Shown here: positions 73 through 27,097 of the stretch, piece after piece
Numbering within the stretch: position 1 is the first letter of the stretch
Layout of the letters: each line of letters begins with the position of its first letter
NCBI GenBank assembly: GCA_009786275.1
Contig: WQTL01000516.1
Coordinates: forward strand, 1-27,638
DNA from: Bacillota bacterium
GTDB lineage: Bacteria; Bacillota; Clostridia; Oscillospirales; Acutalibacteraceae
DNA: 27,638 bases
Reading direction: 5' to 3'
The notes under the pieces: model-generated
What the model saw: the letters and a program-made list of their open reading frames with translations, nothing else
Told to the model about the DNA's origin: nothing
Database searches by the model: none
Program-made: the position numbers and the translations under genes

Positions 73-432
73 ATGGCGAAATATCTCAACGACGCTGGCC
101 TGGCGCATCTGCTCGCTGGGCTTTGGGCTCGGGTGAACCAGAAGCTCTCGGCCATCTCCCTGACGCCGGGGCCGCCCGGCCCTCAAGGGCTGAAAGGCGA
201 CACGGGAAACACCGGGCCGCAGGGCAACGCCGGGGCGACCGGCTCCCAAGGCGTGAAGGGCGACACCGGCAACACTGGCGCAACGGGCGCGGCTGGGGCT
301 TCGGGCGCAAAAGGCGTCGCGTTTTACGGCTGGAGCACCGCCGCGAATCTCACGAATATTTCCTCCATCTCCGGCATGGCGGTGGGCGACTACGTTGTAA
401 ACACCGGCACGGCCATGCGCACCATGCTTGGC
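73..432 (+). pseudogene. Phage-type collagen-like (tail fibre) protein, N-terminal fragment truncated at a junction
   Basis: RBS (GAAGGAGG) precedes ATG 73. MAKYLNDAGLAHLLAGLW is followed by 16 G-X-Y triplets. After ~432 the frame runs into antisense GH29 sequence. Confidence 0.7.
169..315 (+). repeat. Collagen G-X-Y repeat (16 triplets)
   Basis: GPP GPQ GLK GDT GNT GPQ GNA GAT GSQ GVK GDT GNT GAT GAA GAS GAK G. Confidence 0.9.
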
Positions 433-657
433 CACCAGCACGGCGTACTTCGCCCCCGCCGCCTTCGCCGAGCGGATCCACTGGTCGGTGTCCAGCCGCA
501 TGGGCGCGAACACCTCCGCCGGGGGCGTGTAGCCCCGCTGCTTTCGAAAATCATACTCCGGCACGAAGGTCTGCACGTCCATGTGGATGAGGACGCCGAT
601 TTCCAGGTCCGCCCAGGCTTGCTGCTGCGCTGTGGGGAGCACAATGTCAGGTATCAT
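424..657 (-). pseudogene. Alpha-L-fucosidase (GH29) N-terminal fragment
   Basis: Not in the ORF track. Manual translation from ATG 657 gives MIPDIVLPTAQQQAWADLEIGVLIHMDVQTF...FAPMRLDTDQWIRSAKAAGAKYAVLVAKH, matching the GH29 pattern PTxQQxxW...H...LDxDQW...AGAKY.VL.AKH. Similarity ends right after AKH. Confidence 0.8.
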
Positions 658-675
658 CGCAGCTATCCCTGCCTT

Positions 676-1215
676 TCATTCTGCCAATCGCCCGGCCTGG
701 CTGTAGTCCCAGGCTTCAAAGCCCAGCTGCGTGACGGCCGGGGAGTTGAGCGCCAGGGTGAAGTCGCCGTTTTTCGGATCCCTGAACAGCGGGTCGGCGA
801 ACAGGGCGTTGTTGTAATAGCCAAGGCCGCGCACGTCGCCAGAATACAGGCGGTCGCCAAAATCGTGCCCCTTCTGTTTGGCGCTGAAGGGGCGGCGGGG
901 GTTGGCGTAATCGTAGAACAGGTTGCCGTCATCGCGGAATTTGCCCGCCGCCAGCGCGCGATACAGGGCCTGGCCCTCGCTGACGACGATGTTGCGCTCG
1001 AAGATGGCGCCGATGTGCTCCTCCTTGCGGTGGACGCCCGCCACGCCGTCGTCGGCGAAGGCAAAAATATTGTTGCGCACCAGGTTTTCGCGGCCATAGT
1101 GCTGGCTGAAGCATTCGCCGCAGTTATAGACCAGGTTCTTCTCGATGAGCATCCCCGAAGTGCCTTCGTCCGGGTAGATGCCGCAGCCGCCGTAGCCGCC
1201 CTGGAGGGGGTCGGC
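676..1215 (-). pseudogene. Right-handed beta-helix carbohydrate-active protein, C-terminal fragment
   Basis: GYGGCGIYPDEGTSGMLIEKNLVY...QHYGRENLVRNNIFAF and a C-terminal DPLFRDPKNGDFTL motif. The stop at 676 is just upstream of the GH29 start, giving an operon-like layout. The N-terminus is missing. Confidence 0.7.
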
Positions 1216-1571
1216 CTGCGGAACTCCTTTTTCGTGAACGCCCACTGCGCGGCGATCCGTTTCGCGATGTCCTGATTGCCCGTGGCGTCATACAGCGCCT
1301 CGAACGCGAAGAGCATCTGCGCGTGCGCCCAGATCATGTACTGCTGGCCGTCCGTTTCCATGCCGCCCCATTCCTTCATCAGGTGGCCGGTTTCCGCGCC
1401 GCCGCGCCAGTACAGCCGCAGCATGTCCTCGTAGACGGCCATGGCCATGCCGGCATCAGACTCTGCCAGTACGTCGCAGGGCTGTATGAAATCGGAAGCG
1501 TTCGCGCCTGCGGAAAATGCTCCCGCCAGCAGGGCTGTGCACAGCAACAGTGCGATGAGCTTGCGTTTCAT
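1216..1571 (-). pseudogene. Secreted protein N-terminal fragment, possibly a GH76-like (alpha/alpha)6 hydrolase
   Basis: RBS AAGGAGGAG and a signal peptide (MKRKLIALLLCTALLAGAFSAGANA). WAHAQMLFAFEALYDATGN resembles GH76-type helices. The frame degenerates after ~1216. Confidence 0.45.
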
Positions 1572-3789: not shown

Positions 3790-4040
3790 ACCCGAATAGC
3801 CCGTTTGGCAGGTACATTGCCTTTGCTGCCCGGACACATAGAAAACAGGACGAGCTGCTGAAACCCACCCCAACGAATCTGTGGATTTGCTGGGGGCTCC
3901 GGGGCTCCGATGAAAGGTGTCAACCCGTTTGCTGGAAACCTTACCCAAGGCCGAGGGCCAATATAAACGAAGTGAACCTTTGGGTTCGAATGCAACCGAC
4001 TACGCCGGGCGGCGTGAATTATCATGGCGCCCGGCCATTT
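3790..4040 (+). ncRNA. Candidate structured RNA/5' leader between the sigma-like gene and XRE
   Basis: Several hairpins: GGCAG/CTGCC (3807-3830); CCCC-AAC-GAATC/GATTT-GCT-GGGG (3868-3896); CCTT/AAGG (3939-3950); GAACC/GGTTC (3974-3987); GCCGGGCG-G-CGTGA/TCATG-G-CGCCCGGC (4004-4035). No credible coding frame. Confidence 0.35.
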
Positions 4041-4057
4041 CAAGGAGGATTCGCGTG

Positions 4058-4456
4058 ATGAAAAACAAACCCACACAGGCACAGAACAGGGCGGCAGCGG
4101 AACTGCTCCGCACCCAAAGGCGCGGCAAGGGACTGACCCAGGAGCAGGTAGCGCGGCGCGCTGGAATACACTTTCGGGTATATGGGAGTTTTGAGTGTTG
4201 CGAGCGCAATTTCCTCACCGCCCGGTTCAGAACCGTCCATGTCAACGATTGCAACATATACAACTGTGCGCACTGCGAACACGGGCTGACAGAGGAATCG
4301 AGGTATAAAGTAGGCGCAACGAATGGCGACGTGTGGCGTACTTTTGGCAATCCGAGCGGTGAAGGCAGGCCTACCAACAAAGGCTCGGACATCTGCGAAC
4401 ACTGGCAGCGGGCGGCTGATCATACGATTTGGAGGGAAGCATGCGATATACCCTGA
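4058..4456 (+). CDS. XRE-family HTH protein (HipB-like position) with an unexplained Cys-rich C-terminal half
   Basis: RBS AAGGAGG. LRTQRRGKGLTQEQVARRAGIHFRVYGSFECCERN is an XRE HTH. The stop overlaps the start of the HipA-like gene. Confidence 0.65.
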   Translation: MKNKPTQAQNRAAAELLRTQRRGKGLTQEQVARRAGIHFRVYGSFECCERNFLTARFRTVHVNDCNIYNCAHCEHGLTEESRYKVGATNGDVWRTFGNPSGEGRPTNKGSDICEHWQRAADHTIWREACDIP

Positions 4457-5595
4457 TGCACAAAAACGTCCCGGTGATAGACCTGACCATCAACGGTGAG
4501 CTGGGAAACATCACTTCGGCGGATACGCCGCATAGTCTGGGGCATCTGCCGATAGGTGTATTGTCCTCGGATGGTGTCCCCGACTTGCTTCGCCTCGCAA
4601 AGTGGTGGAAGCACCGGGCTATCCCGCCAAACAGGCCGGGCTTGGAAAGGGCACTGAACAGGCTGAAGGCACAGGCGCCTCTATCGCTTGTTTTGCATTG
4701 TAACGGGCTGAGCCTCTCCGACCAATACTGGATTCGCCCGAAAGCTGACAATATGGCATGGGAGGACATCAACTTTTTTCGGCAGCCATTTGCCGAGGAC
4801 ATGGGCAAGCTGCTGTTAGAGAAAGCAGTACCTGGCGACAGAGTTGATTGGGTCTCTCCGGACTGCACTACGGACGGGTGGCTGACAAAGCGTTGGGAAA
4901 TTATCGATGGTGTGCGTTGCCTGACAAAAGGCGGCACGGGGCCATTGCGGCAAGAACCGCTGAATGAAGCCCTTGCCGCGGCGGTCATGCGGAGACTTGG
5001 CGTAGCACATGTGGATTATACCGTTGTATGGGAGGGTGGCTTGCCGTATAGCGTTTGCCCGAATTTTCTTTCCCCCGAAACGGAGTTTGTCACGGCCTTC
5101 CAAATCTGCGAAACCAGGCCGCTGGCACCAGGCAGCGATCTGTACGCGCATTATCTTGGCTGCTGCGACGCGCTCGGTATCCACGGCATCCGTGATAGCC
5201 TTGATCGAATGATCGTGGTGGATTACATTATCGCCAACAGCGACAGGCATTATGGCAATTTCGGCGCTATCCGTAACGCGGACACGCTGGAGTGGCTCGG
5301 TCCCGCACCACTGTTTGACAATGGAACATCGCTTTGGAACGATACACCCACAATTCTCATTGCTCCCGCCAACGGCAACAGGAGCCGCGCGTTTTTCCGC
5401 AATCATTATGATCAGTTGATCCTTGTTACATCGTTCGATTGGCTGGATATTTCGACTCTGGACTGTATCGAGGATATGTGCGCGGAAGTGTTTGCCGCAA
5501 GCCTGCATATTGACGATGAGCGCCGTGATGTCATTTGCCGCGCGACGCGAAAGCGGCTTGAATTGCTGCAGAGATATGCAGTACGCCAAAAATAA
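4441..5595 (+). CDS. HipA-like Ser/Thr kinase
   Basis: Motifs SPDCTTDGWLTKRW, LTKGG, QEPLNE, DYIIANSDRHYGNFG and APLFDNGTSL; RBS GGAGGG before ATG 4441. Confidence 0.85.
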   Translation: MRYTLMHKNVPVIDLTINGELGNITSADTPHSLGHLPIGVLSSDGVPDLLRLAKWWKHRAIPPNRPGLERALNRLKAQAPLSLVLHCNGLSLSDQYWIRPKADNMAWEDINFFRQPFAEDMGKLLLEKAVPGDRVDWVSPDCTTDGWLTKRWEIIDGVRCLTKGGTGPLRQEPLNEALAAAVMRRLGVAHVDYTVVWEGGLPYSVCPNFLSPETEFVTAFQICETRPLAPGSDLYAHYLGCCDALGIHGIRDSLDRMIVVDYIIANSDRHYGNFGAIRNADTLEWLGPAPLFDNGTSLWNDTPTILIAPANGNRSRAFFRNHYDQLILVTSFDWLDISTLDCIEDMCAEVFAASLHIDDERRDVICRATRKRLELLQRYAVRQK

Positions 5596-5617
5596 CCGTG
5601 ATAAAGGAGACAGGTCC

Positions 5618-6868
5618 ATGCAAGATCTGAAGCTTCGCTTTTTTGACGAGATTGCCGGGGAGGAAATTCGATGGCTGTGGAAACCGTACATCGCCTTTGG
5701 CAAAATTACTGTCATACAGGGCGATCCGGGCAACGGCAAAACCACCCTCGCCCTGGCCATTGCCGCCATCATCTCCCGCCGGGAACAAATGCCCACAGGC
5801 GACGCTGAGCCCTTCGTCGGCAACATCATCTATTTAAGCGGCGAGGATAGCCCGCAGGATACCATCAAACCACGGCTCGCGGCCTGCGGGGCGGATTGCT
5901 CGAAAATCTGCTTCGCCGAACCGGATGGGTCGTTGTCTGCAGTATCCCTTGAAAACGCCATACGGGAAACCAACACAAAATACGTGGTGCTTGACCCGCT
6001 GCAGGCCTTTTTGGGTGAGAAGCAGGACATATCCAGCGCGAAAAACATGCGCCCATTTTTAAAGGAACTGGCGGATGCGGCGGCCCGCACGAGCGCCGCG
6101 ATTGTCATCATCGGACACATGAATAAGGGCGAACACGCAAAGAGCATCTATCGCGGGTTGGGCTCCATTGACATTACCGCCGCCGCTCGGAGTGTGTTGC
6201 TTGTGGGCAAACGCAAGGACGATCCCGGCATTCGCTTTATGACCCAGATAAAGAATAACCTTTCCGCTTTCGGCAAATCGGTGGGGTTTACCATCGCCGC
6301 CGACGGAGGCGTTGAATTCCTGGGCGAAAGCGAGGTGCGGGAGGAAGATTTGCTTTCCAACGCTAAGGCTAAAAAAACGAAGTATCAGACGGCGAAAGAG
6401 ATGATTTTCAATATGCTCAAAGACGGCGACCGGCTGTCCAACGAGATTTATACCACGCTGCTCAATGCGGGGATTACATCAGGGATGATTCAAGGGGTAA
6501 AGCGCGATTTTGCCGTAAGGTCAGTGCAAAAAGGCAGCGAGTGGTTCTGGACGCTCAAGGGCAGCAAATTGGCATGCACCCCCTCCGGCGGAGGTGATGA
6601 CGGCGAAGTGGCGTTTGTGACGCTGGATGAAAGCTCCATCCACGACGCCCTAACGGCAGCCGAGACTCACGAGCAACAACCGCAGGTTTACAGGGACCCG
6701 ACGGATTTGGGGCTGGACCGCGAGCAATTTGAAATTCTGCCGTTACCCGAAGCCGACATCACGCGTAAAAGAGGACGCAAGCCAAAACCTCCGCCGGAAC
6801 CTGTTTTTCATCCAACCGCGCTAAAGTCGCCGCGCTACGGCGATTTGGTAGTTTTCGAGTGGAGGTGA
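5618..6868 (+). CDS. AAA_25 (RecA/RepA-like) ATPase
   Basis: WLWKPYIAFGKITVIQGDPGNGKT (Walker A), VVLDPLQAFLG (Walker B), HMNK and RGLGSIDITAAARSV; RBS AAAGGAG before ATG 5618. Confidence 0.85.
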   Translation: MQDLKLRFFDEIAGEEIRWLWKPYIAFGKITVIQGDPGNGKTTLALAIAAIISRREQMPTGDAEPFVGNIIYLSGEDSPQDTIKPRLAACGADCSKICFAEPDGSLSAVSLENAIRETNTKYVVLDPLQAFLGEKQDISSAKNMRPFLKELADAAARTSAAIVIIGHMNKGEHAKSIYRGLGSIDITAAARSVLLVGKRKDDPGIRFMTQIKNNLSAFGKSVGFTIAADGGVEFLGESEVREEDLLSNAKAKKTKYQTAKEMIFNMLKDGDRLSNEIYTTLLNAGITSGMIQGVKRDFAVRSVQKGSEWFWTLKGSKLACTPSGGGDDGEVAFVTLDESSIHDALTAAETHEQQPQVYRDPTDLGLDREQFEILPLPEADITRKRGRKPKPPPEPVFHPTALKSPRYGDLVVFEWR

Positions 6869-6875
6869 ATATCCG

Positions 6876-8672
6876 TTGCGGAATATGCCTGAAATGATTG
6901 TCATGGAGCAGGAAGAGGCGTATATATTTACCGACCTGCAGACCAAGCAGATGCGCGTCGCCGCCTACTGCAGGGTAAGCACGGATCACGAAGAACAAAA
7001 GACCAGTTTTCAATTGCAGACGGAATATTATCGCGAATACGTGTCAAATCACTCCCACTGGTCGCTGGTAGATGTATACGCGGACGAAGGGTTCTCGGCG
7101 ACGAATACCAAGCACCGTGACGGCTTTAACCGCATGATCCAGGATTGCGAGCGAGGCAAAGTCGACCTTATCATTTGCAAAAATGTATCGCGCTTTTCGA
7201 GGAATGTGCTGGATTGTCTCGGTACCGCAAAAAAATTGGCGGAGCTGCGCCACCCGGTTGGCATTTTCTTCGAGGAACAGAACATCAATACCCTCAATCG
7301 AGAAAGCCGCTTGATGCTGCACTTTCTCTCCACATTGGCGGAGTGGGAAAGCCAGGCGAAAAGCGAATCAATGGAGTGGTCCATTGTACGGCGCTTCAAG
7401 GACAGGAAATTCCTTACGCCCGCCAACTATTTGTTGGGCTACGACCGCGACGCCAATAAAAAGCTCATCATCGAAGAAAACGGCGCGAATACTGTCCGCG
7501 CGATTTATAAGGCTTTTCTGGCGGGATATTCCCTTAAGGACATCGCTTTTGTGCTGAGCGATTATGGGCGCCCTACGGGGAAAGGCAACACGGTCTGGGG
7601 CGCCGAGAGTGTCCGCCGCATCTTGCTGAATGAGCGCTACAGCGGCGGAGTTTATACACGCAAAACCTACACAAAAGATCCCTTGGACCACAAAAAAGCG
7701 AAAAACTACGGCGCGAAGGACAGCATATATCAGCGCCAACACCATCCCGCTATTGTGACGGAATCGGAGTATCTGCAAGCGCTCAAATTGTTGAAATCCC
7801 AGCGCGGCTCTCCTTACTACAACCCTTACTATACTGTCCGGGTGATCCGGGAAGGCCTGTTGGCGGGTTTTATTCCAATGTGCCCTGTATTCGGGTTTTA
7901 TCAGCCCAAACACTATGTGGGCGCGTTGGAAGCGGCGCAGATCGAACTGCCGCTCATACGCGGCGAGACCGTGGACGTGAAAAACGCCGCCATTACCCGC
8001 ATCCAGGAGTTTTCCCACTCCAACATCGCGTCTTTGACTGTTTCGCCCAGCCACCTTTCCTTTAACACCGAGTGCGTGGGGCTGCTCGGCGAAGTGAAAC
8101 ACGTTGAGCTGCTGTTCCATCCCAAGGAGCGTATCCTGGCGGTCCGGGCAGCAACGGCGGACAACCATAACGCTCTGCTCTGGCGAAACAAGCCCATCGG
8201 CGCGAAGCAGCTGGGGAATCTGCTCTATGCTTTTTGCGGCTGGAACGAACCTTGCCGTTACAAAATTATGGCGGACAGCTATTGCCGCGGGGACGAAAAG
8301 GTGCTGATGTTCGACCTTGAGGGTGCGGAATTCTTTATCCAAAGCCGCGTTGAGCAGAAAATAACGAACCAGTCCGGTACAGCGGTCAGCGTGTGGGCAA
8401 AAATTACGCGGCTCTTGCAGCCTGAGGATTGGGAGCAAAATTTTGGCAAAACCTGCAAGACCCACGCCGCATCGGGCAGGCGGTGGCTTGCGCAGTCCTT
8501 AGACGATTGGTTCATATACGCGCAGGCTGAGGAAGTTCCCGGTTTTGACGGCTATTCGCCCGAAGCACACGCGCCCATGGAAGATTGGCTGAAGGAGTCA
8601 TTTGAGGAAGGGTATATCGACGCCCTCAATCAGAATTTTTACAACCCGGAGGTAATCGAAAATGTCCAATGA
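6876..8672 (+). CDS. Large serine recombinase with an atypical C-terminal domain
   Basis: YCRVS (catalytic Ser35), YADEG, SRFSRN, and a recombinase domain (GYD...ILLNERYSG...HHPAIV). No CxxC zinc ribbon. TTG start with RBS GGAGGTGA. Confidence 0.9.
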   Translation: MRNMPEMIVMEQEEAYIFTDLQTKQMRVAAYCRVSTDHEEQKTSFQLQTEYYREYVSNHSHWSLVDVYADEGFSATNTKHRDGFNRMIQDCERGKVDLIICKNVSRFSRNVLDCLGTAKKLAELRHPVGIFFEEQNINTLNRESRLMLHFLSTLAEWESQAKSESMEWSIVRRFKDRKFLTPANYLLGYDRDANKKLIIEENGANTVRAIYKAFLAGYSLKDIAFVLSDYGRPTGKGNTVWGAESVRRILLNERYSGGVYTRKTYTKDPLDHKKAKNYGAKDSIYQRQHHPAIVTESEYLQALKLLKSQRGSPYYNPYYTVRVIREGLLAGFIPMCPVFGFYQPKHYVGALEAAQIELPLIRGETVDVKNAAITRIQEFSHSNIASLTVSPSHLSFNTECVGLLGEVKHVELLFHPKERILAVRAATADNHNALLWRNKPIGAKQLGNLLYAFCGWNEPCRYKIMADSYCRGDEKVLMFDLEGAEFFIQSRVEQKITNQSGTAVSVWAKITRLLQPEDWEQNFGKTCKTHAASGRRWLAQSLDDWFIYAQAEEVPGFDGYSPEAHAPMEDWLKESFEEGYIDALNQNFYNPEVIENVQ

Positions 8673-9372
8673 TGTCTACGCGCTCAGCAAAAACAAGGGG
8701 ATATCCAGCCTGGATGAACTGAGCAATCTCGAGGTTGTGAGGACTGAGAATTTGTCGTCAGCCCTTCGCCCCAAGGTCATCATCAATTATGAAAGCATCT
8801 CTTTCAACAGAGCCTGCGTCCTCCTGTTCCCCAACACCCAATATGTCAACATTCTCATTGACCGCGTCAAATTCCGCATTATTGTACTGCCCGCCCACCA
8901 ATATGCCAAGGATGCCCTGAGATGGTGCAATATCTGCGACGGCGAGGTGCGCAAGCGTGACTGTTCGGCAAAGAAGTTCGGCGAGAAGATGTACGATATG
9001 ATGCAGTGGATCAAAGAAAACCGCTATCGCGTGATTGCCTACTACCAGGAAGTAGACGGCGTGAGATTGTTGGTTTTCAACTTGCGGGAGTGTGAGATGG
9101 TTGTACCGGAGTATGTTACGCTGCCCAACGGAAAAACCGTCAAACGCGGCCGTGTCATTTTACCGGACGACTGGACCGGGTTCGGGATGCCCCGCGAAGA
9201 ACATGAAAAGGCCAACGACGTGGAGCTCGACGCGCACTATTCCCTGACAGAGCGAGACAGGGAAGTGACCATCAGCGAGGTTCAGGTTACGGGCGCGATC
9301 CCGACGGAAAAGGAAGTCGTCCAGTCCCACTACAAAGAAGAACCAAGAGAGGATGTGTTTGCCAATGCTTAA
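8662..9372 (+). CDS. Uncharacterised recombinase-associated protein, paralog of the LSR C-terminal domain
   Basis: ISFNRACVLLFPNTQYVNILID...W...RYRV...LLVFNL aligns with LSR LSFNTECVGLLGEVKHVELLFH...W...RYKI...VLMFDL. RBS GGAGG; overlaps the LSR stop. Confidence 0.8.
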   Translation: MSNDVYALSKNKGISSLDELSNLEVVRTENLSSALRPKVIINYESISFNRACVLLFPNTQYVNILIDRVKFRIIVLPAHQYAKDALRWCNICDGEVRKRDCSAKKFGEKMYDMMQWIKENRYRVIAYYQEVDGVRLLVFNLRECEMVVPEYVTLPNGKTVKRGRVILPDDWTGFGMPREEHEKANDVELDAHYSLTERDREVTISEVQVTGAIPTEKEVVQSHYKEEPREDVFANA

Positions 9373-9757
9373 CCATGAAATCAAAGCGGCTGAGAAGCCG
9401 ATAATAAAATTTGAAACACGGAAGTATAGCATGTCGCTCTCTCCTGAGACCGTGCTGTGCGTTGGGCAGCCGCGCCATGTTGTTTTTTACTATGACAGAG
9501 AGCGGCAGGTATTGATAATGGAGGGGACAGACGTGGCGACGCGGTACTCAACCAAATTGCCGCCGCTGAGCAAAACAGACCGGTTCAAACCATCGCAAAT
9601 GTATATGCCCGGGGTTGTACGTATTTTTGCTGACCAACTTGGTTGGGAGATAAATAAATGCTACGAGATTGAGGGTATATATTACAGCGAGAGCCGAATC
9701 GCGACCTTCGAATTGTCCGGCGCGAAAGAGAGCGGAGGCTGGGAAAATGCATTGTGA
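9365..9757 (+). CDS. Uncharacterised protein, second stand-alone paralog (AbrB-like pattern)
   Basis: MSLSPETVLCVGQPRHVVFYYDRERQVLIMEG...GWEINKCYEIEGIY...IATFEL. ATG 9365 overlaps the upstream stop. Confidence 0.7.
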   Translation: MLNHEIKAAEKPIIKFETRKYSMSLSPETVLCVGQPRHVVFYYDRERQVLIMEGTDVATRYSTKLPPLSKTDRFKPSQMYMPGVVRIFADQLGWEINKCYEIEGIYYSESRIATFELSGAKESGGWENAL

Positions 9758-10048
9758 CCCGCAGCCCCCTTTGCTTATTTCTGCGTATTTTGGAAAGCAT
9801 GTTCCTTTTTTTCGCTTGACAAGCGGCGGTTCTTTCGCTATCAACAAAGCCACGCTAAGCATTCTCGGCAGCCCGCAAAATATTCTTTTTTGGTATAGCA
9901 AGCAGCACAATGCACTTTTGCTGACGGCAGTTGAACAGCCGACCGCGTTGTCATTTCCCGTCCCGGATTACCGCTACAACTCGAGGCAATAGCAATAGCA
10001 TTCCCGCTTAACAGTGCCATGATTGAGGAGGTATCTCTAAATGTCTGA
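9747..10048 (+). pseudogene. Third paralog, with an internal deletion/frameshift near 9986
   Basis: FAINKATLSILGSPQNILFWYSKQHNALLLTA stops at 9992. The family C-terminal motif AIAFPLNSAMIEEVSLNV* resumes in another frame (9986-10048), where GCAATA is duplicated. Confidence 0.6.
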
Positions 10049-10412
10049 ACATCCAAAAAACCAAAACCTGCCCGCTGTTTTGCGCATGAAACGCGGTTGG
10101 GAGCTTACAATAAGCCGTGCCGCATTGGAACCCTTAGGGAATCCCGGTTATGTGCGATTTTTGTGGAGCGCGCAACAGCGTGTGTTGCTCATAGAAGCGG
10201 CGGATGCCGATACGCCGCAATCACTGCGGGTGGGCGCTCCAAAAGGCGGGAGCATAGTGTTCCGCAACCATAGTTTTCTCGACGCCATTTTGAAACTGAC
10301 CCAATGGAATCGCGACAGTATCTATACGGTGCAGGGCGAGTACCTGCCGAAGCTAAACATGGTGGCGTTTGAAACCCAAAATGTGATTCAGGAGGAGCCG
10401 AGCAATGCGTGA
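10041..10412 (+). CDS. Uncharacterised protein, fourth stand-alone paralog
   Basis: LTISRAALEPLGNPGYVRFLWSAQQRVLLIEA...QWNRDSIYTVQGEY...MVAFET; RBS GAGGAGG. Confidence 0.75.
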   Translation: MSEHPKNQNLPAVLRMKRGWELTISRAALEPLGNPGYVRFLWSAQQRVLLIEAADADTPQSLRVGAPKGGSIVFRNHSFLDAILKLTQWNRDSIYTVQGEYLPKLNMVAFETQNVIQEEPSNA

Positions 10413-10860
10413 TACTCCAAAGAAAGTAGCCGCCTACATTCGCGTAGGTGCGAGCGAAGCCTTCAAACCCGTTTTGGAAGCGGAAAGGGAGAAGTTTGAG
10501 AAGAGCATCAGAAACCACGAAACATGGGAGTTTGCGGGCTGTTACGCCGACGCAGGTCCCGCATCGCTGGAAAGCCCCGAACTGCAGAGGTTGATGGAGG
10601 ATTGCCGGGCGGGCAGAATTGACATTGTCATCACAAAAGGCACATCGAGAATGTCAAAGAATCTTGCAGACATCATCAAAATCTCCATGGAGCTTATGCT
10701 GCTTGAACCGCCTGTCGGCATTGTATTTATGGAAGAAAACTGCTTCACTCTACAGAGCAACGAAATCTTTTGCCTCGGCGGCTTTGCGGCCATTGAAGCG
10801 GAACAGATGGATCGGCGCAAGGGACTGAACAACCCCGATGGAGGCGATGACGACGAGTAA
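10405..10860 (+). CDS. Stand-alone resolvase-domain protein lacking the catalytic Ser
   Basis: KVAAYIRVG (Gly at the Ser position), YAD, GRIDIVITKGTSRMSKN and PPVGIVFMEEN parallel the LSR N-domain. There is no DNA-binding domain. Confidence 0.8.
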   Translation: MRDTPKKVAAYIRVGASEAFKPVLEAEREKFEKSIRNHETWEFAGCYADAGPASLESPELQRLMEDCRAGRIDIVITKGTSRMSKNLADIIKISMELMLLEPPVGIVFMEENCFTLQSNEIFCLGGFAAIEAEQMDRRKGLNNPDGGDDDE

Positions 10861-11562
10861 GACGAAAGTAGCCGTGTATATTCGTATGGATGCAGGAAGC
10901 GGGGATGAGGTAGGCCTTGTCTTTTTCGGAGCGGATCGCTTCGGTGAACTTCGCCCGACCCCGCCGGGCGAACTCGGTCACCCGTTGCTCCTCGAATTCC
11001 CGTTTGAGCAACCCCACCTCCAGCACGTCGCGCCCGATGCGGCTTTGGTCTTTGATGATCACCGTGGCCACCATGTCCTGACGGACGAGGTCCAGCAGGC
11101 GGTTGAGCTCGGGCCTCGAAAATACCGTGCCCGAAACCCCGTCGTCAGGAAAATGCTCGCAGTTTTTGAAGCCGTTGTCCTTCGCATATTTTTCGAGCAT
11201 CTGCTTCTGGTTCGCGATGGACATGGACTCGCCCTGGAGCAGGTCATACGCGTACCAAACAAGGGCTAAAAAAGGACGCACACTGTTTGGGCAACAGGAA
11301 CGACCTATTCCCTCACGCGCAGGAAGGTAAATTCGACCTGCTCATTGCGTCCAGGCTTTCAGACTTCGATGCGAACCTGGAAACTTGCACGGACACAATT
11401 TGGGAGCTTTTGCTTGCGCGCCCACCGGTCGGGATCCATATTGAATCGCTCAACTTTTTCTCCCTGATGCCAAATGCCCTGCGGTATATGAAATATCTAC
11501 AGGAAATGCGGTTTCAAAACGAGGAATCTAAGCAGTGCGGCGGCGTGCTATGGGAGCTGTAA
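10847..11562 (+). pseudogene. Second degenerate resolvase-domain gene, interrupted by inverted foreign DNA
   Basis: The 5' part reads MTTSKTKVAVYIRMD (10847 to ~10910). The 3' part reads QEGKFDLLIASRLSDF...RPPVGIHIESLNFFSL (~11246-11562). The middle is antisense foreign sequence. Confidence 0.6.
10979..11245 (-). pseudogene. Fragment of a different (TnpX/TndX-like) serine recombinase catalytic domain
   Basis: DLLQGESMSIANQKQMLEKYAKDNGF...DDGVSGTVFSRPEL...IIKDQSRIGRD. It lacks the upstream RLS motif and everything after EEQRV. Confidence 0.75.
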
Positions 11563-11585
11563 CGCAGGGAATTCTATGAACAAGC

Positions 11586-11716
11586 TCAGATCGCCCAAAC
11601 CGGCACGATCACCGTGCCCCGGTCGAGCGCTGAAAGCTCTTTCTTTGTGCAAACGACGGCCCCATTCCCCTGGGCATACCCGCTTTGTCCAGAACCTTGA
11701 ACGCGCCCGCGAGCTC
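11586..11716 (-). pseudogene. C-terminal fragment of a DUF4143-type AAA ATPase with a frameshift
   Basis: Joining two frames at a G run gives ELAGAFKVLDKAGMPRG(N)GAVVCTKKELSALDRGTVIVPVWAI*, which resembles DUF4143 C-termini. Confidence 0.5.
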
Positions 11717-11775
11717 CGTCTGTGGCGAGGCAGGCTGGCGCCGGTTTCGAGAGGAAAGTCAAGCGGATTTTTCTT

Positions 11776-11995
11776 TCAATCCCACCAATCCAACATATTC
11801 TGTTCCATGAGCTCGCCAAGCCGCTTCAGGTCGGCCTGCTCGTCATTGGACGCTGCTTCATATGCTTCATGCATTTCCCGGTCATAGCTGTCTGGCGTGA
11901 GGTGTTCAAATCCGACAGAGCCGTCTTCATAGGTCGTCTTTCTGTACGGGTACTTCCCCCATTTTTGCTCTACCGACTTACGGCGAAGCAGTTCC
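11776..11995 (-). pseudogene. C-terminal fragment of a hypothetical protein
   Basis: WGKYPYRKTTYEDGSVGFE...LKRLGELMEQNMLDWWD* looks coding. No RBS-backed start was found. Confidence 0.3.
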
Positions 11996-12158
11996 TGTCG
12001 ATCTTTGGGCAGAGCGACTACAGCCGGGACGATAAACATCTCCTTTTCGCCTTGATCGACAAATTTCTGGCCTAGCGAACAGCCGTCAGCCATAATGGGT
12101 CAACCTCCAGAGGGGTTTGGCTCATTTATTTTTCCGAACAAAATGGAGGAGGCAGATT

Positions 12159-12626: not shown

Positions 12627-12642
12627 ATTGGAGGTGAGTCAA

Positions 12643-12834
12643 ATGCCAAACGAGCCTGAAAAGTGGTCAAGCCTTGAAGAAATAGCCGAGCATCTCGGCG
12701 TTAGCAAGGATACGATTCGCAGTTGGATTAAAAAAGGAGTCATACCGCACCGCCGGATAGGCAAGCAATTCAAGTTTCGGATTTCGGAAGTGGATGAATG
12801 GGTTGACAGTGGCAAAAGCGCCGAAATAGAATGA
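12643..12834 (+). CDS. Small excisionase/MerR-like HTH DNA-binding protein
   Basis: WSSLEEIAEHLGVSKDTIRSWIKKGVIPHRRIGKQFKFRISEVDEW; RBS GGAGGTGA. Confidence 0.85.
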   Translation: MPNEPEKWSSLEEIAEHLGVSKDTIRSWIKKGVIPHRRIGKQFKFRISEVDEWVDSGKSAEIE

Positions 12835-17618: not shown

Positions 17619-20600
17619 ATGAACAAGACCGCCATACAAAAATACGCGGTGTGGGCACGAAACGAGCTCATCGGGCAGGTAAAACAGCGTGCCTTCCAAT
17701 ATGGGATCAGCGAGGAGGGGTACGGCGAAGAGAACGCCGCCGTGGTTGCCGGGCGTGTGTTGAGCACGGACGAAAAGCGCCAGCGGCAGGGCTTTGTTGA
17801 CGAAATAAAGAAATACGGCTACCGGCAGGCGGTGGAAAAAGCTGCTTACACCTGGTTCAACCGCTTCATCGCTCTGCGCTTTATGGAGGTCAACGACTAC
17901 CTGCCGACCCATGTGCGTGTGTTTTCGGACGCTGCCGGGAGCTTCAATCCCGAAATACTCAAAGAGGCCCTGCGCATTGATTTACCCGGCCTTGACCCCG
18001 CGAAGGTCCGCGCTTTCATCGACGCCAGCGACGACGAGGGTCTTTACCGCTACCTGCTGCTCACCCAGTGCAACGCCCTGAGCGGCGCACTGCCGGAGAT
18101 GTTCCAGCAAATGGGCGGCTACACCGAGCTGCTGCTGCCGAACAATATCCTCAAGCAGGACAGCGTGCTTGCCCGGCTTGTGCTGGACATTGACGCGGGC
18201 GACTGGCACGACGCCGTGCAGATCATCGGGTGGATGTACCAGTACTACAACACCGAACCCAAGCAGGCGGTCTTCGACGGCCTGAAGAAGAATATTAAAA
18301 TCACCAAGGAGAAAATCCCCGCCGCAACCCAGCTTTTTACCCCGGACTGGATCGTGCGCTACATGGTGGAAAACTCCCTGGGCAGGCTGTGGCTGGAAAA
18401 CCACCCGGACGCGGCCTTGCGGGGCAAACCGCTGCAATCGTATTGGAAATACTACCTGGCCGAAGCGGAGCAGACCCCTGAAGTGACGCGGCACCTGTGC
18501 GCCCTGCGCTCTCTGTCACCCGTAAAATCGCCGGAAGACGTCCGCTTTATTGACCCCTGCATGGGCAGCGGCCACATCCTGGTCTACGCCTTTGACGTGC
18601 TGCTGCAAATCTACGAAAGCGAGGGCGTGGGCAACAGCGACGCCGCCCGGCTCATCCTGGAAAAAAACCTCCACGGCCTGGATATCGACCCCCGGGCCTA
18701 CCAGCTTGCCTATTTCGCGCTGATGATGAAAGCCCGCAAACACAACCGCCGCATCCTTCGCCTGGGCGTTGCGCCGCAGGTCTACCACCCGGAGGGCTTT
18801 GCCGACGGCGAGGAATACGGCTCGCTGAAAATCGATGACCCCGGCGGCATACCCGCCGAGCGCATTGGCTACGACAACGACCTGCGCGTATGGAACTTCA
18901 AGCGGCTGCTGACCCTGAAGTACGACTGCGTGGTGACGAACCCGCCGTATATGGGAGGCAAAGGGCAGAGTGGAACAACGGCTCAGTTTCTTAAAGATAA
19001 TTATCCCGATACCAAATCCGACACATTTTCTGCTTTCATTGAAAGGTGCGGACAAATGGCCAGCTCGACTGGATATGTCGGAATGTTTACGCCATATGTC
19101 TGGATGTTTATACAGAGCTATGAGAAGCTCCGCAATATGCTGTACTCCACAAAAGATATTATCACGCTGATTCAGTTTGAGTATTCAGCGTTTGAAGAAG
19201 CAACTGTGCCAGTCTGTTCTTTTGTGGTGCGCAATGGCAAAACTGGCGCTTCTGGAGAATATTTGCGCCTTGTGGATTATCGCGGCGGCATGGAGGTACA
19301 GAGAGTAAAAGCGCTTGAAGCCATAGCCAATCCCAATTGCGGCTATCGCTATACAGCCAGCACCGAAAACTTCGAGAAAATACCGGGGTGGCCTGTGGCG
19401 TATTGGGTGAGTGAGGCGATGTTAAGGGCGTTTATTCGTGGGAAAACAATTGAAGAAATCGCCGACGTAAAGCATGGAATGTCTACAGGAAAAAACGAAG
19501 TATTCGTTCGCGAATGGTGGGAGATCAAGCATAATGAAATAGATTATAATCTGACCGATAAAAATCAACTAGAACATAGCACGGCTAAGTACTATCCCTA
19601 CAATAAAGGTGGAGAGTATCGGCTTTGGTATGGTAATGCACAACAAGTCGTGCTATACGGAAGCGAAGGCAGAACAAAGATGCTAACTTACTCCGGCTTT
19701 AGGCACGATGGTAAAGAGTGGTATTTCCGCAAAGGCATAACATGGTCTTTTATTAGCTCATCAAAATTCGGCGTTCGCTTGTCGCCAACTGGGTTTGTCT
19801 TTGACGTTGCCGGCTCATCTCTTTTCCCGAAACCAGTGAATATACTCTATTTGCTTGGCTTTTTGAGTTCGAAGATTTGTTTTACCATCCTAATGTCTCT
19901 CAATCCAACATTGAATTTTCAAGTTGGAAACATCAAGAGCATACCCGTAATCCTCGATGCAGGCAGAAAGCCGGATGTGGATGATTTAGTTACCACCAAC
20001 GTCTCACTCTCCCGTTCCGACTGGGACGCCTTTGAAACCAGCTGGGATTTTAAGCGGCACCCGCTGGTGAATGGGGAAGCGAGCATGGCGGCGGCGTTTG
20101 GGAATTGGGAGCGCGAGGCGGCGGAGCGGTTTGAGACCCTCAAGGCCAATGAAGAGGAGCTGAACCGGATATTTATTGGCATCTACGGCTTGCAGGATGA
20201 GCTGACCCCGGAGGTGGAGGACAAGGACGTGACCGTGCGGCGGGCCGACCTGGGCCGGGACATCAGGAGCTTTATCAGCTACGCCGTAGGGTGCATGTTC
20301 GGGCGGTATTCGCTGGACGAGGAGGGGCTTGTGTTCGCGGGCGGCGGCTGGGATGACGGCAAGTACAAGACGTTCCAGCCGGATGCGGACAACGTGCTGC
20401 CCATCTGCGACGACGAGTATTTTGACGACGACATCGCGGGGCGGTTCGCGCAGTTCGTGGAGGCGGTCTACGGCGCGCAAACCCTGGAGGAGAACCTGAA
20501 GTTCATCGCCGACGCGCTGGGCGGTAAAGGCACGCCCCGCGAAGTCATCCGGAATTACTTCCTGAATGATTTCTACAAAGACCACTGCAAGATATACCAG

Positions 20601-20957: not shown

Positions 20958-20972
20958 AGAGGTGTGAACGGG

Positions 20973-21998
20973 ATGGCAAACAAACCACCCTATACCATCA
21001 CGGAGAAAGCCGCCGACTATCTGGCGAAAATCGTAGAAACCGTAACGCGGCTGGAATACGGCACGGGCTTCAAGCGGGATATCCGCCTGCATAGGGAAAA
21101 TCGTGCGCGGACCATACACTCCTCCCTTGCCATCGAGGGCAACTCTCTCACGCTGGGTGAGGTAACCGCCGTGATCGAAGGCAAGGTCATCGCGGGCAAG
21201 CAGGCGGACATCAAGGAAGTAAAGAACGCCTACGAAGCCTACGACAAAATCATGACATTTGACCCCTATGCCGTCAAAGACTTCCTGATCGCCCACAAGC
21301 TGATGACGCAGGGTCTGGTTGCGGAAGCGGGCAAGTTCCGCAGCGGCGACGTGGGTGTATTTGACGGCGATGTGGCGGTGCATATCGGCGCGAGGCCGCA
21401 GTTCGTCCCAGGTTTGGTGAACGAGTTGTTCGGTTGGGCAAAGGAATCCGAATTGCACCCTGTGTTGAAAAGCGCGATTGCGCATTACGAAATCGAAACT
21501 ATCCACCCCTTTGCCGACGGCAACGGGCGTATGGGGCGGCTTTGGCAGACCTTGCTTCTGGCCAAATGGAACGCCATTTTCGCATGGATTCCCATGGAAG
21601 AGGTGCTGTACCGGAACAGACCGCAATACTATCAGGCAATCGAAGCGGCGAGAAAAGCCAACGATTCGGGCGATTTTATTGAATTTACGCTTTCGGTGGT
21701 TTTGGACACCATTGCCGACCAGGAAAAGCACCAAGTCAAGCACGAAGATAAGCACCAAGTCGAATGGGCCGAAAAACAACTGGAGGTGCTGAGATCACTT
21801 GGCACAACGGCATTGTCGCGCAAAGAAGTGTTTGACGCTGTCGGAATGAACGGTGATTCGCGTTCATTCAAACGTCATATGGAACCGCTTCTCGAAGCGG
21901 GACTGATTGAGATGACCGTACCTGACAGGCCAAACAGCCGCCTGCAAAAATACAGGCTGACGGAAAACGGTAAGACTGTCATCGGCGAAAGCAGATAG
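20973..21998 (+). CDS. fic: Fic-family protein with a C-terminal HTH-like domain
   Basis: Canonical HPFADGNGRMGR, an N-terminal inhibitory-type SSLAIEGN motif, and C-terminal MTVPDRPNSRLQKYRLT. Confidence 0.9.
   Translation: MANKPPYTITEKAADYLAKIVETVTRLEYGTGFKRDIRLHRENRARTIHSSLAIEGNSLTLGEVTAVIEGKVIAGKQADIKEVKNAYEAYDKIMTFDPYAVKDFLIAHKLMTQGLVAEAGKFRSGDVGVFDGDVAVHIGARPQFVPGLVNELFGWAKESELHPVLKSAIAHYEIETIHPFADGNGRMGRLWQTLLLAKWNAIFAWIPMEEVLYRNRPQYYQAIEAARKANDSGDFIEFTLSVVLDTIADQEKHQVKHEDKHQVEWAEKQLEVLRSLGTTALSRKEVFDAVGMNGDSRSFKRHMEPLLEAGLIEMTVPDRPNSRLQKYRLTENGKTVIGESR
21726..21761 (+). repeat. Three 12-bp tandem units encoding a KHQV/KHED linker
   Basis: AAGCACCAAGTC AAGCACGAAGAT AAGCACCAAGTC. Confidence 0.8.
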
Positions 21999-24633: not shown

Positions 24634-26682
24634 ATGGAGGCAGCAAACCCAAACGAGGAAATCTATAGAAAACTGCGGGCGAATTTCGACGGCAGGATTG
24701 TCCGCAAAGACCTGACCAAGGCCATCAAGGAGGGCGCGAACGTGCCTGTCTATGTCTTGGAGTTTTTGCTTGGACAGTATTGTTCTTCTGACGACCCGCA
24801 GATTATCGAAAGCGGTGTGGCGAACGTCAAGAGAATCCTTTCCGAGAACTTCGTGCGCCCTGACGAGGCGCAGAAGGTGCTGTCATCTCTGCGGGAGCGC
24901 GGCGGCTACACGGTTATCGACCGCATCACAGTCAGCCTGAACATAAAGTTTGACCGATATGAAGCGGACTTCTCCAACCTTGGCGTTCGGGGTATCCCCA
25001 TTTCGGCAGACTATGTATCCAGGTATGACCGCCTGCTGTGCGGCGGCATCTGGTGCATCGTCGGGCTTGAATATGAGTACATTGAGGAAGACAAAAAATC
25101 CACGCCGATACGCGTCGTGAAGCTGACCCCGATTCAAATGCCACACATTGACATGGCCGAAATAAAGGAAGGCCGCAAAGCCTTTTCCAAGGATGAGTGG
25201 ATTGCGGTTTTGCTTCGCTCTGCCGGCATGGAAGCCGACCATTTTACCAACCGCGAGAAATGGCTACAGCTCACCCGTATGCTCCCGCTCATAGAAAACA
25301 ACTTCAATCTCTGTGAGCTGGGGCCTCGCAGCACGGGCAAGTCGCATCTTTATAAGGAAATTTCGCCAAACTCCATCCTTGTATCCGGTGGGCAGACTAC
25401 GGTCGCCAATCTCTTCTACAACATGTCGAATAAGCAGGTCGGCCTTGTGGGTTTATGGGACTGCGTGGCATTCGATGAGGTGGCGGGCATTACGTTCAAG
25501 GACAAAGACGGCGTTCAAATCATGAAGGACTACATGGCGTCCGGCTCGTTCGCTCGCGGCAAGGAGGAAAAGGCGGCGTCCGCCTCAATGGTTTTTGTGG
25601 GCAATATCAACCAGAGCGTGGATGTGCTGCTGAAAACCTCACACCTCTTTGACCCGTTCCCCGAAGCGATGGCCTATGATACGGCATTCCTGGACCGTAT
25701 GCATTGCTATAATCCCGGCTGGGAAATCCCAAAGTACCGTCCAGAATCATTCACCAACGGCTACGGCTTTATCACTGATTACCTCGCTGAGTTCATGCGG
25801 CAGATGCGCAAAGAGCCATTCGGTGACGTCTGCGATAAATATTTCCGCTTCGGCAGCAACCTGAACCAGCGCGATGTAATTGCCGTGCGAAAAATCGTGT
25901 CTGGTTTTGCCAAGCTGCTCTACCCGAACGGCGAGTTCACCAAGGAAGAGATAGAGGAAGTCCTCGTCTTTGCCCTTGAAATGCGCCGCCGCGTCAAAGA
26001 GCAACTCAAGAAAATCGGCGGCATGGAGTTCTACGATGTGAACTTTTCCTACGTCGACAACGAGTCCTTTGAGGAACGTTATGTTTCCGTACCGGAGCAA
26101 GGCGGCGGCAAGATAATTCCAGAAGGCTTGACGAACCCCGGTAATATCTACACCATCTCGCAAGGTAAAAGCGGCATGATAGGCGTATACCGTCTTGAAA
26201 CGCAAATGCTCCCCGGCAACGGAAAATTCGAGCGCACGGGGCTTGGCTCTGACCGCGACGCGAAGGAAGCCACCAACACGGCGTTTAACTACCTGAAAGC
26301 AAGCGGACACCAGATAAGCGGTCAACTCAGCACGACAACAAAGGACTACATCATTAACTATCAAGACCTCAACGGCATCGGCATGACAAAGTTCTTGACA
26401 TTGCCGTCTGTGATAGCCCTCGCTTCCTGCGCCCTTGGCAAGCCAACACTTTCCAGTCTGGCCGTTCTCGGCGAAATCAGCATCAGCGGCACTATCCTCA
26501 AGGTTGAGGAGCTGGCAAGTGTCCTGCAAGTCTGCCTCGATGCTGGGGCAAAAAAAGTGTTGATCCCCATCACCTCTGCCGCTGAACTGGGCATGGTTCC
26601 AGCGGACCTCATCGGCGCATTCAGCCTGATATTTTACAGCACGCCACAAGAAGCTGTTCGCAAGGCTTTGGGCGTGGAATAA
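24634..26682 (+). CDS. brxL: BREX Lon-like AAA+ protein BrxL
   Basis: GANVPVYVLEFLLG, ELGPRSTGKS, AFDEVAG and a C-terminal Lon-like domain (LGEISISG...GAKKVLIP); RBS AGGAGG. Confidence 0.95.
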   Translation: MEAANPNEEIYRKLRANFDGRIVRKDLTKAIKEGANVPVYVLEFLLGQYCSSDDPQIIESGVANVKRILSENFVRPDEAQKVLSSLRERGGYTVIDRITVSLNIKFDRYEADFSNLGVRGIPISADYVSRYDRLLCGGIWCIVGLEYEYIEEDKKSTPIRVVKLTPIQMPHIDMAEIKEGRKAFSKDEWIAVLLRSAGMEADHFTNREKWLQLTRMLPLIENNFNLCELGPRSTGKSHLYKEISPNSILVSGGQTTVANLFYNMSNKQVGLVGLWDCVAFDEVAGITFKDKDGVQIMKDYMASGSFARGKEEKAASASMVFVGNINQSVDVLLKTSHLFDPFPEAMAYDTAFLDRMHCYNPGWEIPKYRPESFTNGYGFITDYLAEFMRQMRKEPFGDVCDKYFRFGSNLNQRDVIAVRKIVSGFAKLLYPNGEFTKEEIEEVLVFALEMRRRVKEQLKKIGGMEFYDVNFSYVDNESFEERYVSVPEQGGGKIIPEGLTNPGNIYTISQGKSGMIGVYRLETQMLPGNGKFERTGLGSDRDAKEATNTAFNYLKASGHQISGQLSTTTKDYIINYQDLNGIGMTKFLTLPSVIALASCALGKPTLSSLAVLGEISISGTILKVEELASVLQVCLDAGAKKVLIPITSAAELGMVPADLIGAFSLIFYSTPQEAVRKALGVE

Positions 26683-26723
26683 GAGTAAGGTGCGCCACTA
26701 AACTTTTTTTCATCGCATAAATA

Positions 26724-26765
26724 TAAAGGCTCGAAACGGCTGTGCAAGGTCGTTTCGAGCCTTTA
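26724..26765. terminator. Probably bidirectional terminator after brxL
   Basis: TAAAGGCTCGAAACGGC-8 nt loop-GTCGTTTCGAGCCTTTA, a 17-bp stem with one G-T pair. Confidence 0.75.
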
Positions 26766-26785
26766 CAAAATTGTCCTTTCGTAAT

Positions 26786-26878
26786 GACCGCATAGCAAAT
26801 AGTCTGGTAAGTTCTCCCGTGCCTCCGTCCGTCGTAAACGGCGATCACGGCATCAGCCCTGTCAACCATGAAGCGGTT
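26786..26878 (-). pseudogene. SLOG/YpsA (DUF1273)-like C-terminal fragment
   Basis: NRFMVDRADAVIAVYDG...TYQTICYA matches the RNxxMVDxxxxxIAVYDG..GT..T..YA pattern. Confidence 0.6.
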
Positions 26879-27097
26879 GTCGGGCACGCCTTTTGTGGGC
26901 CGCCCGAACGCCACGCCACGCGCCTTGGCCGCCGCAATCCCTTCAGCCTGCCGCTGACGAATGGCTATGCGCTCCCGTTCTGAGCAGTAGCTCAACAGTT
27001 GCAAGATGATGTCGCTGATCAGCCGCCCGGTGAGGTCGCGGTCTTTCTGTCGCGTGTCGAGCAGCGGCATATCCAGCACCACGATATCCGCACCCTT
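26879..27097 (-). pseudogene. Small serine resolvase internal fragment
   Basis: KGADIVVLDMPLLDTR...IILQLLSY..ERERIAIRQRQAEGIAAAKARGVAFGRP; the N-terminus is absent. Confidence 0.8.

Follow-up and report, generated by a model that had tools for sequence, protein, structure and literature searches.

Why is a gene for a large serine recombinase (LSR) followed by a row of small genes that encode single domains of the kinds found in the enzyme itself? This question is raised by contig WQTL01000516.1, hereafter the window, a 27,638-nucleotide (nt) stretch that is the entire 27.6-kb contig of a metagenome-assembled genome (80% complete) of termite-gut metagenome origin. Its plus strand encodes a large serine recombinase that bears a C-terminal domain to which we give the label X, and we refer to this enzyme as LSR-X and to the genes behind it as g1 to g6. 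Our analysis indicates that the row is most likely a conserved serine-recombinase module of Clostridia mobile elements and temperate phages, of which the window holds an expanded and partly decayed copy. The window contains one LSR, three intact X genes and one truncated X gene, one intact dead resolvase, which lacks the catalytic Ser, and two dead-resolvase remnants, laid out as follows (lengths in amino acids, aa; HMM, hidden Markov model):

6876-8672, plus strand: LSR-X, 598 aa; catalytic domain, recombinase domain, X domain with extension, and acidic tail
8662-9372, plus strand: g1, 236 aa; a free copy of the whole LSR C-terminal module (X, extension and acidic tail)
9365-9757, plus strand: g2, a small X protein of 130 aa counted from the ATG at 9365 (another ATG lies upstream, at 9353); HMM A2, E = 3e-41
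9747-9992, plus strand: g3, a truncated small X gene with start ATG at 9747
10041-10412, plus strand: g4, a small X protein of 123 aa; HMM A2, E = 4e-43
10405-10860, plus strand: g5, an intact Ser-less resolvase-domain protein of 151 aa; Pfam Resolvase (PF00239), E = 7.2e-11
10847-10909, plus strand: 5' stump (21 codons, motif YIRMDAG) of g6, the second Ser-less resolvase gene of the operon
10910-10985, no strand: 76-nt filler between two breakpoints, origin not assigned
10986-11245, minus strand: fragment (about codons 15-101) of a DUF4368-type LSR; Pfam Resolvase, E = 3.7e-15 on the minus-strand open reading frame (ORF)
11246-11562, plus strand: 3' remnant, the last 105 codons of another Ser-less resolvase gene (174 aa), outside the LSR-X operon

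LSR-X matches the large serine recombinases (serine integrases) in its catalytic domain, with Ser and Arg in place, and in its PF07508 domain. The catalytic domain (residues 28-173) matches Resolvase (PF00239, E = 8.9e-29) and possesses the nucleophilic Ser and the active-site Arg residues (YCRVST and SRFSR motifs), which bears out the intact catalytic Ser reported in the initial annotation, a reading of this DNA made without database searches. The recombinase domain follows helix E at residues 203-307 (PF07508, E = 7.5e-18), and X with its extension occupies about residues 365-532. We compared 19 LSR-X loci from bacterial genomes, metagenomes and phages (comparison loci are labelled L0xx) and found that the Y-x-R-V-S-T motif is kept in 18 of the 19 proteins, while none has a CxxC in its C-terminal part. 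The zinc ribbon (PF13408) had no match in either of the two LSR-X proteins scanned, one of them the window LSR-X (no match at E<=0.1); in contrast, the canonical LSR neighbouring the operon in a related locus, L022, does match PF13408. CcrB is the best NCBIfam model for both LSR-X and g5, and the scores of LSR-X lie far below the NCBIfam cut-offs (CcrB 98.7 bits against 900; CcrC 64 against 900; CcrA 62 against 700), so LSR-X is not a CcrA/B/C equivalog.

The C-terminal domain of LSR-X recurs in the four genes that follow it. The g1 protein aligns to LSR residues 367-530 (blastp E = 5e-10; HMM E = 5e-23), and a 5.8-billion-protein collection yielded 74 homologs at 39-89% identity, none of which has a Pfam domain or an informative name. 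By BLAST, g2, g3 and g4 are weakly similar to one another and to g1, and the profiles of the g1 family and the small-X family match each other (hhalign probability 98.2%, E = 3e-14, 111 columns), which argues that g1 to g4 all carry the X domain. Starts and stops overlap along the operon by 11, 8, 11, 8 and 14 nt, the g2 start overlapping the g1 stop by 8 nt, and a GGAGG-like Shine-Dalgarno site precedes each start. The initial annotation had described six overlapping accessory genes, four of them paralogs of the LSR C-terminal domain. The overlaps of 8-14 nt and the presence of X in all four stand, with the correction that two of the six genes are broken: g3 is truncated, and the last "gene" is chimeric. 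Relative to its intact 135-aa ortholog in L022, g3 has a deletion of about 105 nt and has lost its frame, as judged by alignment, which accounts for the 48-nt gap ahead of g4; the window copy is probably a pseudogene. While g3 is intact in L022 and truncated in the window, it is absent from relatives in X2 and X5, two further termite-gut runs (joint 9752>10027; Logan contigs were used for the junction checks).

Two other accounts of the row were rejected. Silent cassettes for swapping the C-terminal domain of the integrase do not fit copies that are only about 20% identical, that each have their own start and ribosome-binding site, and that belong to old separate clades. Nor did we find support for a shufflon or other invertible segment on which the LSR would act: neither the operon nor the window as a whole has inverted repeats that would fit it, and the contig joints show no inversion.

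The set is conserved well beyond the window. Profile searches recovered the order LSR-X, g1-like gene (200-265 aa) and small X gene (115-170 aa), hereafter the trio, in 18/19 loci, phages included; the initial annotation had named a lack of conservation with the LSR as grounds for dropping its proposal, and the gene set is conserved with the LSR. The closest full counterpart is L022, seen in two independent assemblies, with 84% DNA identity over window positions 4441-10910 and a complete row of LSR, g1, three small X genes and two Ser-less resolvase genes; an 8-nt overlap is called at every one of its junctions except g2/g3. Between the window and L022, the ratio of nonsynonymous to synonymous substitution rates (dN/dS) ranges from 0.08 to 0.32 for all members (LSR-X, 0.08; g1, 0.13; g2, 0.32; g3, as the truncated copy, 0.32; g4, 0.19; g5, 0.13), and the sequences thus indicate purifying selection on LSR-X, g1, the small X genes and g5. 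Among 200 genomes sampled from the same family, 15 had the trio, as did 2 of 400 drawn from across the phylum. It was also found in 19 phage records, mostly Candidatus (Ca.) Heliusvirales from human faeces, where its genes are annotated as hypothetical; in one record LSR-X begins 50 bp from the record end. The paper describing Ca. Heliusvirales does not mention the trio genes. A full HMMER scan with the X-family profile returned 2109 clusters at 50% identity (1309 at E<=1e-10). In two of the Heliusvirales loci (L039:4564-6407 and L040:5802-7692), the trio is followed by a protein of about 325 aa without a family match and then by a DUF6551 protein, and the opposite strand carries one to two canonical serine recombinases.

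A tree of X domains places the small-X class on one side of a branch with 100/99 support; the g1 proteins group together (91/91) within the X domains of the recombinases. Subclades of the LSR-X, g1 and small-X classes contain the same loci. Separate classes with matching subclades suggest that the set arose early and was inherited as a unit, and that its members are not recent duplicates. The same holds within the window, where g2 groups with the small-X pair of L026, in a small-X lineage apart from that of g3 and g4; the window's three small X copies are therefore not recent tandem duplicates.

Ser-less resolvase genes are the less regular part of the module. They occur in 9/19 loci, at 0-2 per locus, and their position depends on the clade: in that of the window they follow the X genes, and in a phage-like clade (L029, L030, L032, L034 and L035) they lie ahead of the recombinase gene and overlap its start. 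None of the 10 intact short resolvase proteins has the Ser (it is replaced by G, D, F or N-type residues; motifs YIRVG, YIRAG, YIRMD, YIRIG, FCR-N and YIRF/YF), and all keep the preceding Arg. They are 151-234 aa long, retain the resolvase fold and have no further domain. In g5, which is 34% identical to LSR residues 27-140 (E = 3e-19), Gly replaces the nucleophilic Ser (YIRVGAS); the protein is acidic (isoelectric point, pI, 4.8) and has no DNA-binding domain. A PPVGI-type motif is common to the Ser-less resolvases and LSR-X and is absent from the one canonical recombinase in the alignment. Part of helix E is kept in Ser-less catalytic domains; in those of the upstream type, the helix E region has been lost. 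Both dead resolvases in the window had been taken as derived from the adjacent LSR. The tree of resolvase domains, with its long branches, does not settle their descent from LSR-X, and the family of the distal remnant also occurs without LSR-X.

Of the two Ser-less N-terminal paralogs initially described, g5 is confirmed, and the second, at 10838-11562, is not one gene; it combines the g6 stump, the 76-nt filler, the inverted LSR fragment and the 3' end of a different gene. Intact g6 in L022 is 170 aa long, and the homology of L022 with the window stops at 10910; the X2 and X5 relatives diverge from the window at 10909 too, so that three comparisons break at the same base, 10909/10910, inside g6. 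The filler has no match to L022 or L053, and loose ends lie at 10986/10988 in run X2. The inverted fragment lacks the catalytic Ser codon and everything downstream of it, is 53% identical to the 535-aa LSR of L022 and 92.7% identical in nucleotides to L053 263-522, and lies at doubled depth, which marks it as a repeat in the metagenome. The 3' remnant has 89-91% nucleotide identity to L051, L052 and L053; the 174-aa gene is intact in L051 and L053, where it follows a second dead resolvase, and the window is 1123 nt shorter than L053 at the junction of this remnant. We rejected the remnant (taken here as 11287-11562) as the C terminus of g6, since it is 33% identical to L022 g6 as opposed to about 90% to the 174-aa gene of L051-L053. 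An assembly artefact was likewise rejected as the source of the inverted fragment. Independent Logan contigs of the source run, covering 5244-10939 and 11216-12054, span the outer junctions 10909/10910 and 11245/11246 with 0 mismatches, so the chimeric stretch is real DNA. In L022 (10673-10822), the final 50 or so codons of g6 overlap, on the opposite strand, the 3' end of the convergent 535-aa DUF4368-type canonical recombinase. The distal end of the operon may be a rearrangement or recombination hot spot or an attachment (att) region.

A row of a related kind was seen in L051 (3129-4702 of contig Ga0082212_10026534), where a 201-aa protein consisting only of a tyrosine-integrase SAM-like (core-binding) domain is followed by two overlapping Ser-less resolvase genes (163 and 174 aa), with no intact recombinase within 6.7 kb. 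The arrangement resembles a further row of "recombinase parts".

What the accessory proteins might do depends largely on the X domain. Searches with g1, g2 and g4 gave no Pfam, NCBIfam or PHROG match, including no SpoVT_AbrB/MraZ sequence-profile match in Pfam, and the g1-family profile matched no PDB sequence. In AlphaFold2 models (predicted local distance difference test, pLDDT, of about 90 over residues 40-150 for g1 and a mean of 86.8 for g4), both proteins show a doubled strand-strand-helix-strand-strand unit. Foldseek found nothing in the PDB at E<=0.001 for either model and, in the AlphaFold database, only uncharacterised proteins, some of them named integrase or recombinase. Exhaustive structural alignment ranked MraZ (1n0e) first for both models, with weak Z scores of 3.5 for g1 and 4.8 for g4, followed for both by plant B3 DNA-binding domains. 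The swapped-hairpin barrels of MraZ and AbrB and the pseudobarrels of plant B3 domains are therefore the best structural matches over the whole X domain, at Z 3.5-4.8 only, and differ from it in that X has no sequence or Foldseek match to them. The X cores are neutral to basic (pI 9.0 for the g1 core), and the dead resolvases are acidic. On these models, X is probably a single-chain, MraZ/AbrB-like, DNA-binding swapped-hairpin barrel; given such weak fold matches, DNA binding by X should be taken as no more than a lead.

Together, the conserved trio order, the old classes, the purifying selection and the recurring Ser-less genes make a multi-subunit recombination or regulation machine, as initially proposed, a reasonable reading of these sequences. 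We hypothesize, with a little less than even confidence, that the small downstream proteins are non-catalytic co-subunits of a recombinase complex that assemble with LSR-X on its sites. LSR-X would be the catalytic subunit, keeping the resolvase catalytic domain and the recombinase DNA-binding domain, with the beta-rich X domain standing in place of the zinc-ribbon/coiled-coil domain. The downstream genes would be translationally coupled and expressed from the same message, and their products would be non-catalytic paralogs: g1 as the whole C-terminal module, small X as just the core barrel and, in certain lineages, catalytic domains that lack the Ser. The X proteins may bind next to the crossover site on the DNA, form pairs with the X domain of LSR-X itself, or do both, while the dead catalytic domains may dock on the catalytic tetramer. 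In this way, the accessory subunits together would supply the site selection and direction control normally given by the coiled coil. The zinc-ribbon/coiled-coil region of characterised integrases, according to PMC11795197, reads the outer half-site, mediates selective synapsis and docks directionality factors, which bind at the junction of the two elements. DNA binding by X, the protein contacts and the effect on recombination are what we infer from the domain relationships, gene order, selection and Ser loss described above. A bolder form of this hypothesis, which we offer tentatively and regard as less likely than not, is an obligate hetero-oligomeric recombinase of LSR-X, g1 and small X, with dead domains in some lineages, in which target recognition and direction control would have passed from a fused zinc-ribbon/coiled-coil to paralogous subunits encoded by separate genes; it would represent a distinct architectural class of integrase, widespread in gut Clostridia and Heliusvirales, and, if true, its specificity might be re-set by exchanging small subunits.

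The co-subunit hypothesis has to be weighed against other roles for the same proteins. They could be directionality factors only, with LSR-X integrating alone and g1 and/or small X permitting excision by binding the X domain or the attL/attR arms. As a rule, excision by serine integrases depends on an additional small protein, and the known recombination directionality factors (RDFs) are structurally unrelated to each other, as stated in PMC11795197. In LSR-X, the usual coiled-coil target appears to be missing, so an RDF would need a different partner surface. Small genes directly 3' of a recombinase also resemble the xisF-xisH-xisI arrangement, and the NCBIfam XisF match of the LSR is weak and sub-threshold (63.9 bits against a cut-off of 375). 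However, gene overlaps of 8-14 nt imply that the small proteins should be made whenever the integrase is made, which is ill-suited to a switch, and the conservation of at least two distinct X paralogs next to each other is more than a single RDF would call for; we consider this explanation unlikely. It is similarly improbable, in our view, that the small proteins are competitors or repressors, with free X proteins occupying the enzyme's DNA motifs or the operon promoter and dead domains forming inactive mixed dimers, so that recombination is damped and the element stabilised. The fold of X best matches MraZ and B3 domains, and MraZ, like AbrB, is a transcription factor; moreover, the part of helix E kept in Ser-less domains makes mixed dimers conceivable. 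On the other hand, an enzyme whose inhibitor is always translated along with it would never be active, the helix E region is gone from dead resolvases of the upstream type, and no operator-like repeats were seen around the operon. Finally, the small genes might have no joint function, being decaying duplicates or unrelated cargo that travels with the integrase, as the truncated g3, the destroyed g6 and the variable copy number between close relatives would suggest. We disfavour this strongly and hold it to be very improbable, since the intact accessory genes have dN/dS of 0.13-0.32, the order is kept in 18/19 loci spanning several genera and phages, and the classes are separate old clades within a family of 2109 clusters.

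Several observations count against the co-subunit hypothesis as well. In L038, LSR-X has no g1 downstream, and the phages that bear the trio also carry one to three canonical LSRs. Copy number is loose (per locus, small X genes number 1-3 and dead resolvases 0-2), and the occurrence of g3 as intact, truncated or absent in close relatives suggests that the extra copies are dispensable. Conserved linkage and matching subclade membership would also be expected from simple co-transfer on one element, and pairs of dead resolvases occur without LSR-X nearby (L051) or beside a canonical recombinase (L053). The fold matches of X are weak (Z<5, no Foldseek match). Lastly, LSR-X is a candidate integrase of the window island, the att sites and borders of which were not found.

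Searches of Pfam, NCBIfam, PHROGs, the PDB and the literature returned no characterised system with this layout, in line with the initial annotation, and as far as these searches reach, the LSR-X/X-paralog module is undescribed; this is an absence of match and not a proof. The canonical LSRs and their RDFs (Bxb1 Int/gp47, phiC31 Int/gp3, SPbeta SprA/SprB and Listeria A118/LI Int) share with LSR-X the Ser catalytic domain and PF07508, carriage by phages and integrative elements, and the expectation that small partner proteins govern the reaction. They differ in that LSR-X appears to have neither zinc ribbon nor coiled coil and possesses the unrelated beta-rich X domain instead. Its partners are encoded by genes that overlap that of the enzyme and are paralogous to its domains, whereas the known RDFs are described in PMC11795197 as unrelated, scavenged proteins encoded elsewhere. 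CcrA/CcrB of SCCmec also encode more than one serine-recombinase paralog side by side; both are full-length and catalytic and act together, while the extra paralogs here are single domains, without the Ser where they are of resolvase type. A working analogy is provided by the synaptosomes of the Tn3/gamma-delta and Sin resolvases (sites II/III), in which non-cleaving subunits beside the crossover site give direction and selectivity. There the accessory subunit is the same polypeptide as the catalytic one, and here it would come from separate, specialised genes. In the fdxN element of Anabaena, the large serine recombinase XisF is followed by small genes, xisH and xisI, that are needed for excision; unlike the accessory genes in the window, XisH and XisI are not paralogs of XisF domains.

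Upstream, LSR-X ends a tight row of plus-strand genes:

3917-4456, plus strand: XRE-type regulator (helix-turn-helix), overlapping the HipA-like gene
4429-5595, plus strand: HipA-like gene, 388 aa, with a weak HipA_C match
5615-6868, plus strand: AAA_25 (RepA/DnaB-C-like) ATPase gene, start approximate, ORF open from 5423; Pfam AAA_25, E = 2.7e-23

The ATPase gene lies directly upstream of LSR-X in the window, L022, L023, L025 and L026 and is not upstream of LSR-X in phage-type loci. The HipA-like gene is kept in L022 (78% amino acid identity, dN/dS 0.20), which also has an XRE-type gene upstream, and is absent from the other LSR-X loci with annotated neighbours (L023 and L025). A tRNA scan of the window was empty, no informative repeats were found as att candidates in the operon or the whole window, and composition and promoter/terminator scans were uninformative on island borders.

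Downstream, a complete type 1 BREX operon starts at 12868 (brxA, brxB, brxC, pglX, a Fic gene, pglZ and brxL). The initial annotation had assigned the recombination machinery to a BREX-carrying island, and our comparisons do not support this tie: L022 has the full LSR-X operon and no BREX, and relatives in other termite-gut runs lack the BREX part. In L023, a brxL gene lies about 6 kb from the LSR-X operon, on the other strand. Within the window, a gene for a 68-aa excisionase-family/MAD1-like helix-turn-helix protein (12628-12834, plus strand) stands directly upstream of brxA, and a strong sigma-70-like promoter match (11/12) lies at 12803-12832, before brxA. The G+C content falls to 0.44 at 19001-20000 in pglX, which may be an exchanged or variable methyltransferase part, and the Fic/DOC-domain gene lies between pglX and pglZ, inside the operon (20964-21998, plus strand). 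Just downstream of brxL is a small serine recombinase remnant (26621-27082, minus strand) that matches the helix E region only (PF00239 positions 110-144). At the other end of the window, a collagen-triple-helix repeat protein (73-1275, plus strand) lies within a stretch of 60-65% G+C; depth over positions 1-2000 is high and heterogeneous, with many internal joints in all four termite-gut runs, which suggests that this stretch is repeated and variable in the community.

Serine integrases rank among the major tools of genome engineering, and their choice of site and direction is understood through the zinc-ribbon/coiled-coil region and unrelated RDFs. The LSR-X family has replaced this region and keeps free paralogs of the enzyme's domains under selection, and it is a sizeable family, found in abundant human-gut phages and in defence-island-like elements. 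If the small proteins are co-subunits, the module would be a second solution to site selection and directionality, would give a role to catalytically dead resolvase domains, and may provide compact, exchangeable components from which to build new recombinase tools. The annotation of integration modules in Ca. Heliusvirales phages, whose trio genes are labelled hypothetical in the records viewed, would benefit too.

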